Shown: one piece after another, positions 42,865 to 61,590 of the stretch
Layout: each line of letters starts with the position of its first letter
How positions within the stretch are numbered: the first letter of the stretch is position 1
Assembly (NCBI GenBank): GCA_951406725.2
Contig: OX597820.1
Span: forward strand, 70,060,001 to 70,124,000
Length of the DNA: 64,000 bases
Reading direction: 5' to 3'
Source of the DNA: Octopus vulgaris
Taxonomy: Eukaryota
Notes under the pieces: generated by a model
The model's input: only the letters and a program-made list of their open reading frames with translations
What the model was told of the DNA's origin: nothing
Databases searched by the model: none
Position numbers and translations under genes: made by a program

Positions 42865-43320
42865 AAGGGAGTTTACAAGATCACAACAAGACGAAGATAG
42901 GTGGTGTACAAAATAAACAGATGTATTAGTATAACGCTCAGATAGAGTCTTTCGTTTCAGCTACGTTTTCTTCTTTCAGAAAAGGACAAACGTAAAAAGA
43001 GTGAAACAAAGAGAGAAAAAAACACCTGTGTGTGTATGTTCTAACGATCTATCATGGCGACTGACTGATATATATATATATATATATATATATATATATA
43101 TATATATATATATCAGTCAGTCGCCATGATAGATCGTTAGCCACTACACACACATTTTTTCTCTCTTTGTTTCACTCCTTGTTTTTTCTGTGTCCTTTTC
43201 TGTAGAAGAGCGTAGGCTCGAAACGTAAAAGACTTTTTCTATTCCTGAGCGTTATACTAATACATCTGTTTGTTTTGTACACCACCTGTCTTCGTCTTTT
43301 GTTGTTCTTGTAAACTCCCC
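42865..43320. repeat. Palindrome of a Penelope-like terminal repeat centred on (TA)n
   Basis: 42865-43067 is an indel-rich reverse complement of 43114-43320. Confidence 0.8.
43192..43233 (+). ncRNA. Minimal hammerhead ribozyme-like motif, variant core CUGUAGA
   Basis: cctttt-CTGTAGA-A-GAGC(GTAG)GCTC-GAAA-C-GTA-aaagac. Confidence 0.55.
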
Positions 43321-44007
43321 TCTCTCTCTCTCTCTCTCTCTCTCTCTCTCTCTATATATATATATATATATATATATATATATATATATATATATAATGT
43401 TTTGTAGCATTTTTTCGGATCTTTATGGATAGAGTTCAAATACAGCCGAGGTCAAGTTTTCCTTTCATCTTTCCCGAGTCGATAAAATAAAGTACCAGTC
43501 AAGTACTGGAGTGGCTGCAATTGTTGCTCCTTGTGCCAATATTTGAATCAATTAATAACAAAGCGATGGAATAGCAGAATTATTACAATGTTGATCAAAA
43601 TATATTTTTCTAGTTTCATATGTATGTATGTATGTATGTATGTATGTATGTATGTATGTATGTATGTATGAATGTATGTATGTATGTATGTATGCATGCG
43701 AGTCTTTGTTTGTGATTGTTCCCTTTACACACCACTTGACAATCAGTGTTGGTTTGCCTAAGTCCCCGTAACTTTGTAGTTTGGCAAAAGAGATCGATAG
43801 AATAAGTGCCAAATTTAAAAATATGTGCTGGGTCTATTTGTTCAACAAAGCCCTTCAAAGTGATGCTACAGTATGGTCACTGTGCAATGACTGAATCAAA
43901 TAAAATGTAAATGATTATGTATAATACAACATCTTCAAATCTCCCTCTCCATCGACTTTATGTAAGTTATCTCCTCAACCCCATACAACCTTTCTAAAAA
44001 AAAAAAA

Positions 44008-44270
44008 AACCTGTTTAAGGTTTCTCGGCGTCAGAAATATGAAGGAACCTCTACTGAAATATTTTTTTTAAAAATGGATAAAAATCTAAAGACGATTCCG
44101 GACCAACCAACCAACCATTGAAAGATACATTCAGAGAAGACCAGGTGCTATATATTCAATCATAGAGCAAATTCCAACCATAATACCACAACAAAACTGA
44201 AAGAAAATAAATTACGGCGGTGCTCCATCATGGCCGCAGTTCTACGAGTTAAACCGTTACAAGAAAAAAA
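44008..44270 (+). mobile_element. CR1/L2-group LINE 3' end, decayed
   Basis: NLFK..VRNMKGTSTEIF..MDKNLKTIPDQP..YIQRR..SIIEQ, then the tail GGCGGTGCTCCATCATGGCCGCAG shared with SINE family A. Confidence 0.65.
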
Positions 44271-59147: not shown

Positions 59148-59467
59148 GATGCTGAGCTCGAATCTCATTTGCAGACCCATGAAAAACGAGTCTCCACCAA
59201 CTACTCTGCTTATATATTTGTGCATACCTGTCAATGTCGTGTCTGCCAGAAGATTTGCAAATCCAATGGAGGCCTCAAAAGACATTTTAGGATCCACAAA
59301 GATCACAACTTAACTGCAACTCTTGGTGGCCCAAATCAGATATGTAATTTATGTGGATGTCTTTTCAATACATTATCTGGTTTAAAAAGCCACATCAGAT
59401 GCCATGATAGATATAAGGTGTAAGTACAAGAGGTGGTCAGACTCTACATAAGGAGTAGACAACCACC
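59148..59467 (+). mobile_element. LINE-like (probably RTE) 3' fragment with two intact C2H2 zinc fingers
   Basis: CRVCQKICKSNGGLKRHFRIH and CNLCGCLFNTLSGLKSHIRCH are in one frame. Stop at 59421-59423, a ~45-nt 3' UTR, and a second copy at 53175. Confidence 0.75.
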
Positions 59468-61548
59468 ATGTATATACATATATATGCGTGTGTGTGTGTG
59501 TGTGTGTGTGTGTGTGTGTGTGTGTATGTGTGTGTGTGTGTGTGTGCGTGTGTGTACACATATGTATATGTGCGTGCATATATATATACACATATATATA
59601 CACATATGTGTAACACAGTCGCGTTAACAAAGGGATGTGGGTTCAACTTGCAAGCGGATAGGGAAGCCTTCTTTTTTATGTCGAGGGCTTATATACCCCT
59701 TTATTAGACTATTTTACTTAGTCATTGTACGATGATCGCCACAAGCTTGAAGCTTATATAAAAACACCATTATTATTATTTACAAGATTGTAAAAACGGC
59801 GCCGTATAAAAAACCAGTCGCATTGAAAACACACACACACACACACACACACACACACACACACACATATATATATATATATATATATATATATATATAT
59901 ATACATGCATGTATGCATATCTATATATCTATATCTATATCTATAATAATAATAATAATAATAATAATAATAATAATAATAGGGAGTATATCCAACTTAC
60001 AGGTTGCCTAATAGTGGTTTTATCTCTAATTTAATTTATATATATATATACACACACACACACACACACACACATATATATATATATATATGTGTGTGTG
60101 TAGGAGTGGCTGTGTGGTAAGTAGCTTGCTTACCAACCACATGGTTCCGGGTTCAGTCCCACTGCGTGGCACCTTGGGCAAATATTTTCTACTATTGCCT
60201 CGGGCCGACTAAAGACGGTGCTCCAGCATAGCCACAGTCAAATGACTGGAACAAGTAAAATAGTAAAGAGCAAGTAAAAGAGTATACTCAGTTTCCTTAT
60301 ACCAAATCTACTCACAAGACTTTGTTTGACTCGAGGCTATAGCAGAAGACACTTGCTAAGGGTGCGATGCACTGGAACTGAACCTGGAACAATGTGGTTA
60401 GTAAGCAGTAGTTTTCTTGATTTTCAGCTCCGACTTTTGACTGTCTAAATGCACCTTGGTGTAAAATGGCTTAACTTGGTTTAAATGAAACAAAGCAATT
60501 TTTATCGATGCATCGATTTATCAGTCATTCTTCACCAATGTATCCACACTCACAGAACGCGCGCGCGTAGAGCTTTATTTACGATAACTTGGTCACTCTG
60601 GAGCGAATCTAACCCGTGTTGTCGATCAGTAGGATCGAGCCTGGAACCATGCACGAGCGAAATAAACTTCCCAACTATAAGGCTGTATTCATGAAATTCT
60701 CCTGTCCAAAGTTTTCATTTATATTTCGTCATAACTGATAACGTTATCACAATATTTATGCTTACGTTCTGAGTTCGAATTCCGCTGAGGTCGACTTTGC
60801 CTTTCATCCTTTCGGGGTCGATTAATCACTGGGGGTCGATGTAATCGATTTAATCCCCTTGTTTGTCCCCTCTATGTTTAGCCATTTGTGGGCAATAAAG
60901 AAATAAAATATATGCATTTGTGTTATTTGTATATGAACATGTGTGTCGATTGGGTGTATATGTATATATAAATAGACGCAGGCATGGCTGTGTGGTAAGA
61001 TGCTTGCTTCCCAAGCACATTGTTCCGGGTTCAGTCCCACTGCGTGGCACCTTGGACAAGTGTCTTCTACTACAGCCACGGATCGACCAAAGTCTTGTGA
61101 GTGGATTTGGTAGACGGAAACTGAAAGAAGCCCGTCGTATATATATGTATATGTATATATATATATATATGCATACATACATACATACATATGTATATAT
61201 GTATATATATATATATATATATATATATATATATATATATATATATATATGTATGTATATATGTATATATATATATATGTATGTATATATGTATATATAT
61301 ATATATATATATATATATATATGCATACATACATACATATATATATATGTATATATATATATATATATATATATATATATATATATATATATATATATCG
61401 ATATATATATATATATATATATATATATATATATCGAGATATATATATATAACAGGAAGCTTTATGAAAATAGACAAAAGACGAAGGCAGGTGGAAAACA
61501 AACAAACAAATGTATTAGTATGGCGCTCAGGAAATATAAATAAAACAA

Positions 61549-61590
61549 GTCTTTAACGTTTCGAGCCTACGCTCTTCAACAGAAAGATAC
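61549..61590 (-). ncRNA. Minimal hammerhead ribozyme-like motif, variant core CUGUUGA
   Basis: Minus strand: tcttt-CTGTTGA-A-GAGC(GTAG)GCTC-GAAA-C-GTT-aaaga. Confidence 0.6.

Follow-up and report, generated by a model that had tools for sequence, protein, structure and literature searches.

The stretch of Octopus vulgaris DNA analysed here (64,000 nucleotides; hereafter, the window) carries two copies of a minimal type I hammerhead motif in which U takes the place of the A at core position 6. The reading that we favour, and to which we give an even chance, is that this is the pseudo-LTR (pLTR) hammerhead of an autonomous, Neptune-like Penelope-like element (PLE), whose recent lineage has U6 fixed, and that the motif is a weakened but still selected ribozyme, probably assisted by a protein or by dimerization. 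Hammerheads in PLEs are poor cutters, may need a protein and, in one element, were dispensable for insertion in vitro. In the family described here, an intact and very young element bears a core change expected to cripple cutting while every other catalytic base is kept, making the family a natural test of whether PLEs need to cut their own RNA at all. If the U6 motif cuts, a large class escapes the “invariant” core and every search descriptor built on CUGANGA; if it fails to cut, the fold of a hammerhead is being preserved for some task other than catalysis. Either outcome would be informative, yet at stake is a single base in a known motif, the activity of which is only predicted.

The hammerhead copies of the window

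Both copies of the motif reside in passive, 5'-truncated PLE stubs. Copy 1 lies on the plus strand in a pLTR stub (43114..43320) that represents a 5'-truncated 3' end placed between (TA)n and (CT)n; it is 77.6% identical over 196 nt to the 3' pLTR of the intact element and belongs to an older subfamily with A at N7. The motif itself (43196..43232) has C3 at 43200, U6 at 43203, an extra A at 43207, stem II at 43208-43219, G12 at 43220, the palindrome ACGU at 43223-43226 and H17 at 43227, after which the cut is predicted. Copy 2, on the minus strand, belongs to the youngest subfamily; its stub (61448..61621), with (TA)n on either side, shares 97.1% identity over 174 nt with the 3' pLTR of the intact element, and its motif (61550..61587; C3 at 61582, U6 at 61579, H17 at 61555) is identical from C3 to H17 to that of intact elements. 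The layout is common to both copies: a short stem I, C3-U4-G5-U6-N7-G8-A9, the extra A, stem II GAGC(GUAG)GCUC, G12-A13-A14, ACGU, H17 and the 3' arm of stem I. Stem I comprises just 4-5 bp, which corrects an earlier description. As the initial annotation had it, N7 (A/U) and H17 (A/U) are the sole differences from C3 to H17 between the two copies (43192-43233 on the plus and 61549-61590 on the minus strand), each of which carries U6.

Two more pieces of the same pLTR are present in the window. An inverted, deletion-rich copy with a broken hammerhead (42760..43065, minus strand) faces copy 1 across (TA)n and is 82.6% identical to it, and a stub of only the part 3' of the hammerhead (48446..48517, minus strand) is 98.6% identical over 70 nt. 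The degraded arm near 42970 had been taken as a hint of an A6 consensus, a suggestion that we abandon: the arm is part of the deletion-rich inverted copy, its 5' letters are common with copy 1, and a second, more decayed tandem remnant that follows the inverted copy reads CTGTAGAA, so that the arm is no evidence for such a consensus. The many small deletions of the inverted arm relative to copy 1 reflect either true decay or an assembly error at the palindrome. An Rfam search of 43160-43270 returned no hammerhead family at E<=10, and for the whole window at E<=1, there was no hammerhead among the best 150 of 319 matches, which were mostly microsatellite miRNA noise.

Position 6 and constraint across the family

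In the 2.8-Gb genome, the 21-mer spanning G8 to G16.2 is matched exactly 18,144 times, against 0 for the reversed control, and the motif is therefore not a product of chance. The 5' context of these copies reads CTGTN in 15,954 cases and CTGAN in 184; the control transversion U4A (CAGTN) occurs in 109. To this we added a sample unbiased by the core: an anchor in the 3' flank has 20,883 matches, and we took the first 90, leaving out 6 copies truncated inside or after the motif and 1 spurious alignment. In the remaining 83, position 6 is U in 82, C in 1 and A in none. Both samples bear out the proposal of the initial annotation that A6U is fixed in the family and not a result of random decay; an A6 consensus, which would have counted against this proposal, was looked for, and the majority letter throughout is U. 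Among the rows listed for contigs from four public runs, which bear four organism labels, letters other than U stay below 3% at position 43203, and the motif changes found fall on N7, H17 and CpG sites.

The A6 copies exceed the U4A control 1.7-fold (184 vs 109, p=1e-5), a sign that some of them are older or are local duplicates. The idea that they form a young subfamily was mostly rejected: 30 A6 loci carry the flanks of various U6 subfamilies, with N7 matching. Natural copies that differ by the single change to A6 do exist in the genome and offer controls; L036, for example, equals window copy 1 over 43192-43233 at every position but 6, and L051 is a further natural A6 copy. A second U6-looking family (CTGTTGAGG...), with G at 17 and no stem I, was left out of the counts. 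In yet another set of repeats (L069, L075, L092, L094, L095 and L099, at about position 1460-1540), CTGATGA is followed some 40 nt on by CTGTTGA, before a single GAAACGT; here, too, there is G at 17 and no obvious stem I, and the family is possibly a rearranged hammerhead.

Apart from position 6, the family conforms to the minimal hammerhead (min-HHR) consensus. C3, U4, G5, G8, A9, G12, A13, A14 and A15.1-U16.1 are each in the majority in at least 77 of the 83 flank-anchored copies, and the extra nucleotide between 9 and 10.1, G10.1-C11.1, stem II, the palindromic 15.2-16.2 (ACGU), an H17 other than G (A 61, U 17, C 2, G 1, gap 2 in the 83 copies) and the short stem I are all present, the A6 of CUGANGA being the one absent feature. 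Because A6 is the only tested feature that is missing, the family is classed by sequence as a variant of the PLE min-HHR and not as a consensus member.

The distribution of changes argues that the motif is held in shape. In the flank-chosen sample, N7 and H17, the positions left free by hammerhead chemistry, are the only motif columns where a second letter reaches at least 15%. With these two set aside, polymorphic columns number 0 of 26 in the motif vs 38 of 117 in the flanks (Fisher p=1.6e-4), so that the core does not vary as freely as its surroundings, an outcome that the initial annotation had named as counting against its proposal. Against the 3' flank alone (18/71), the contrast has p=0.003, or p=0.05 with N7 and H17 counted in, and an invariant run of 14 columns occurs in the 3' flank as well. 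When 247 copies were clustered, a set biased in that many were chosen on the core, N7 and H17 again were the sole variable motif columns, vs 54-61 of 142 flank columns. Across subfamilies, 25-43% of the flank columns changed and none of the 26 motif columns did, despite three CpG sites in the motif; all four letters occur at N7, H17 is C, A or U depending on the stratum (G in 1/81), and, throughout the U6 lineage, neither the stem II loop GUAG nor the extra A that follows A9 varies. Since just N7 and H17 changed between subfamilies, the hammerhead shape is, on this comparative evidence, still constrained. Within single copies, core positions decay at about background rates, with CpG hot spots, and selection therefore appears to act on the replicating masters rather than on stubs like the window pair. 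Stem II covariation after the switch to U6 was examined and rejected as a general pattern, the double changes being mostly mismatches with no general excess. Suggestive only are G-C doubles in stem II, which are tied to C17 (5/7 vs 0/19, p=3e-4, hand count), and exact GGGC/GCCC copies, of which 3 were seen vs about 0.3 expected.

The carrier element and the origin of U6

At a locus found through the motif, RT, linker and GIY-YIG sequences lie directly upstream of it. A search of the genome with a piece of the RT gave 12,138 candidates; among the 150 scored, most have equal scores, with open frames of up to 1,200 codons. Fourteen long-ORF sites were fetched: U6 is present in 27 of their 27 motifs, and at 12 of the 14 sites the motif stands on both sides of the ORF, in the pLTRs. 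Measured at 11 loci, the distance from motif to motif is 4.4-4.6 kb; over 335 nt, the paired pLTRs show 0-3 mismatches at 10 of the loci and 61 at the remaining one. The 3' copies terminate in (TA)n about 105 nt past H17, and in the intact element the first in-frame ATG follows C3 by about 750 nt. The element protein (P0001) matches RVT_1 above the cut-off (E=2.7e-7) and contains the DKG motif (KPADKGG); its GIY-YIG match (E=0.007) is below the cut-off, and the motif residues are nonetheless present, preceded by a CX4CXXC linker that fits the CX2-5CXXC linker of Neptune (shared with Nematis). The Penelope-like identity suggested by the initial annotation is thus confirmed by ORFs combining RT with GIY-YIG and flanked by motif-bearing pLTRs, and the features of EN+ elements are all in evidence, namely, a single ORF with RT and C-terminal GIY-YIG, partial tandem pLTRs and microsatellite targets.

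RT followed by GIY-YIG, DKG and the CX2-5CXXC linker are marks of Neptune or Nematis elements, and the accessible part of the work on Neptune-clade EN+ PLEs (Craig et al. 2021, PMC8557442) describes the same combination along with partial tandems and (TA)n targets; the difference is that the 21-mer of the present family is absent from the supplement text of that study. Relatives at about 41-64% identity bear the same hammerhead as the Acropora Neptune row; a placement in the Neptune clade itself is tentative. The carrier apparently is an autonomous, Neptune-like and active PLE of a very abundant family with many young intact copies. Local tandem PLE copies at C2:77.1-77.2 Mb (L194, L195, L215) all show, in their 3' motif, the mismatch GAGC/GCCC in stem II.

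U6 is likely derived from A6 ancestors, because older relatives in the same genome mostly have A6, a second PLE-type family there has it too, and so do 27 of 28 motif matches outside it. The latter come from 92 outside loci encoding relatives, where a scan with position 6 free yielded the 28 matches in 21 loci: A6 in 27, G6 in 1 and U6 in 0, of which two or three may be chance. Several of these A6 motifs match the Acropora Neptune motif in the accessible supplement of PMC4209133. A related PLE hammerhead with G at position 6 is found in a single copy on a metagenome contig (L291:1982); PLE ORFs with hammerheads in prokaryotic MAG records (L364-L375) are most likely animal DNA contamination. 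In the octopus genome, the old, diverged relatives with a GG..CC stem II, which have 3'-flank words in common with the U6 family, show 84 A, 9 U, 4 G and 3 C at position 6 (hand count of the first 100 of 123). The oldest U6 stratum, with C17 (315 matches), has 87 U, 7 C, 5 A and 1 G in its first 100 (hand count) and includes A6 copies with the same GAGC/GCUC stem. Flank trees, poorly resolved (11/85 and 8/63 branches starred), form a ladder from old A6 copies through C17 to the young copies, with at least 4 A/U changes at position 6 on 66 rows, such that a single origin is not proved. The compensatory changes in stem II appear mostly to predate the U6 switch or cannot be ordered against it. 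Some old A6 relatives stand in local tandems resembling retrozymes (L392/L393, with identical copies of a 452-nt unit, and L422, with a 105-nt unit).

Known hammerheads, the cut site and rival readings

Among known hammerheads, the closest is the Acropora digitifera Neptune motif, one of the min-HHRs of metazoan PLEs (Cervera and De la Peña 2014, PMC4209133). As far as the accessible text goes, these are alike in the extra base between A9 and G10.1, G10.1-C11.1, the 4-bp stem II, the palindromic, loop-less stem III in GAAA-CG-U-H, the short stem I and the pLTR location; the difference is that all 56 motifs listed there have A6, which the descriptor required, whereas U6 is found here in at least 15,954 copies. 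Core position 6 is also substituted in a hammerhead of phage Bcep176, a natural A6C variant in which cleavage is low yet detectable (Perreault et al. 2011, PMC3088659; Naghdi et al. 2020, PMC7151607); that is a C in a single, tested phage example, whereas the U described here is family-wide in a replicating retroelement and known from sequence alone. The Anolis Poseidon element PAc (Frangieh et al. 2024, PMC11167929), likewise, has its hammerhead upstream of an internal reverse-transcription start and uses an uncut RNA template, but it belongs to another PLE clade, its motif overlaps the ORF start, in contrast to the distant ATG of the octopus element, and the accessible text mentions no position-6 change. 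Hammerheads are not mentioned in the accessible part of the octopus repeat annotation (PMC13282606), and no U6 case was found in those of PMC6765202, PMC12192606, PMC8865084, PMC13481778, PMC6155905 and bioRxiv 2026.07.22.740005. We found no natural A6U hammerhead in the literature covered; the variant survey of Lünse, Weinberg and Breaker (RNA Biol 14:1499), Perreault Figs S6-S7 and Cervera supplement file 1 lie outside that scope and could hold one.

In the predicted fold, U6 pairs with A15.1 and extends a rod. For the young element and the two copies of the window, this pair has P=0.92-0.98; the effect is not uniform, P being 0.98 in the youngest subfamily and 0.16-0.7 in others. Each window copy has as its predicted MFE structure a rod in which U4-G5-U6 pairs with A15.1-C15.2-G16.2. 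Natural A6 copies are unable to form a pair of the U6-A15.1 type. In unconstrained cofolding of two natural copies, the intermolecular ACGU helix does not form and pairing proceeds via stem II instead. As many as 83 of the 90 sampled copies extend across the cut site, and their templates therefore were uncut or re-ligated; 5' truncations do not pile up at the cut site (1 of 90 sampled copies).

The replacement of A6 across the family with the rest of the core unchanged makes a slowed self-cutter likely. U6 would lower cleavage through the loss of A6 contacts and also through the predicted U6-A15.1 pair, which would favour an inactive, rod-like hairpin; cutting would then be slow and probably would need an element protein or a second copy. 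Weak cutting could suit the element: insertions terminate some 105 nt downstream of where the cut would fall, and cleavage in the 3' pLTR would therefore separate the ORF from the point at which reverse transcription begins, unless re-ligation of the RNA follows. Position 6 is not beyond change in an active ribozyme: A6C natural and engineered forms have kobs of 0.067 and 0.33 per min at 1 and 10 mM Mg2+ (PMC7151607 Table 1). Assisted cutting has a precedent in the Anolis PLE, in which the hammerhead needs the PLE protein in order to cleave and insertion draws mainly on RNA that has stayed uncut (PMC11167929), and the reach of 83 of the 90 sampled copies across the cut site fits this reading as well. 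A deep scan of a type III hammerhead found low activity for every single mutant in the CUGA turn and, the C3-G8 swap excepted, no second change that restored it (PMC9901934), and PLE minimal hammerheads are weak already with A6, even as dimers (PMC4209133); in our analysis, both count against cleavage by the U6 motif.

The scan results also speak for a motif that is catalytically dead and kept as a structure, be it a hammerhead-derived fold or the rod hairpin, that binds the PLE protein or positions the start of reverse transcription. This reading, which we rate as a substantial possibility although short of an even chance, accommodates the rod as the MFE of both window copies, the invariance of the GUAG loop, which catalysis does not require, and the origin of most copies from RNA intact across the cut site. 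It is also in line with the Anolis PLE, where core mutants leave insertion in vitro unimpaired (PMC11167929). What it explains poorly is that C3, G8, A9, G12, A13, A14 and U16.1, which are catalytic and unpaired in the rod, show no subfamily change, while N7 changed at least 3 times and H17 at least 2 times, and that there is no G stratum at H17, even though a G there would make the rod stronger by pairing with C3; these are few events. That the motif is a neutral relic, its ribozyme killed by A6U in a master element and carried along passively ever since, seems improbable to us: the decay of single copies at near-background rates, with CpG hot spots, would fit, as would the proliferation of PLE clades lacking hammerheads and the suggestion that hammerheads parasitise PLEs (PMC8557442, accessible text), but the contrast between subfamilies (25-43% of flank columns vs 0/26 in the motif, three CpG sites notwithstanding) would not. 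Hardly credible, at the other extreme, is that U6 is fully compensated, for example through the fixed GUAG loop or the additional A next to A9 as a contact partner, so that activity equals that of A6 forms. The loop and extra A indeed are invariant in the U6 lineage, and outside contacts can offset natural core variants (PMC3088659, accessible part), but the pairwise scan gave no compensating second change for CUGA mutants (PMC9901934), PLE hammerheads with A6 generally have the extra A as well (PMC4209133), and there is no evident loop 1 partner.

Beyond the weakened, assisted ribozyme that we prefer, the fold predictions allow a more elaborate model, which we consider unlikely though still worth stating. 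The ribozyme would be self-inhibited, with U6 locking the monomer in an OFF hairpin from which the PLE-encoded protein or a second copy releases it, timing the cut within the transposition cycle, and this down-tuning would have helped the lineage outgrow its A6 relatives. If true, this would be the first family-wide functional A6U hammerhead.

Several further repeats share the window with the U6 copies. A second repeat family, likewise abundant, is represented at 5799-5833 (plus strand) by a minimal hammerhead with A6, the 5' stem I arm being lost in this copy; with 6,721 pattern matches in the genome, this PLE-type family offers an A6 comparison within the same genome. Four head-to-tail 184-nt copies of a SINE-like repeat, also dispersed elsewhere in the window, occupy 37346-38016, and ORF fragments at 36917-37369 (plus strand) and 63319-63822 (minus strand) resemble, in their motifs, pieces of Tc1/mariner transposases.
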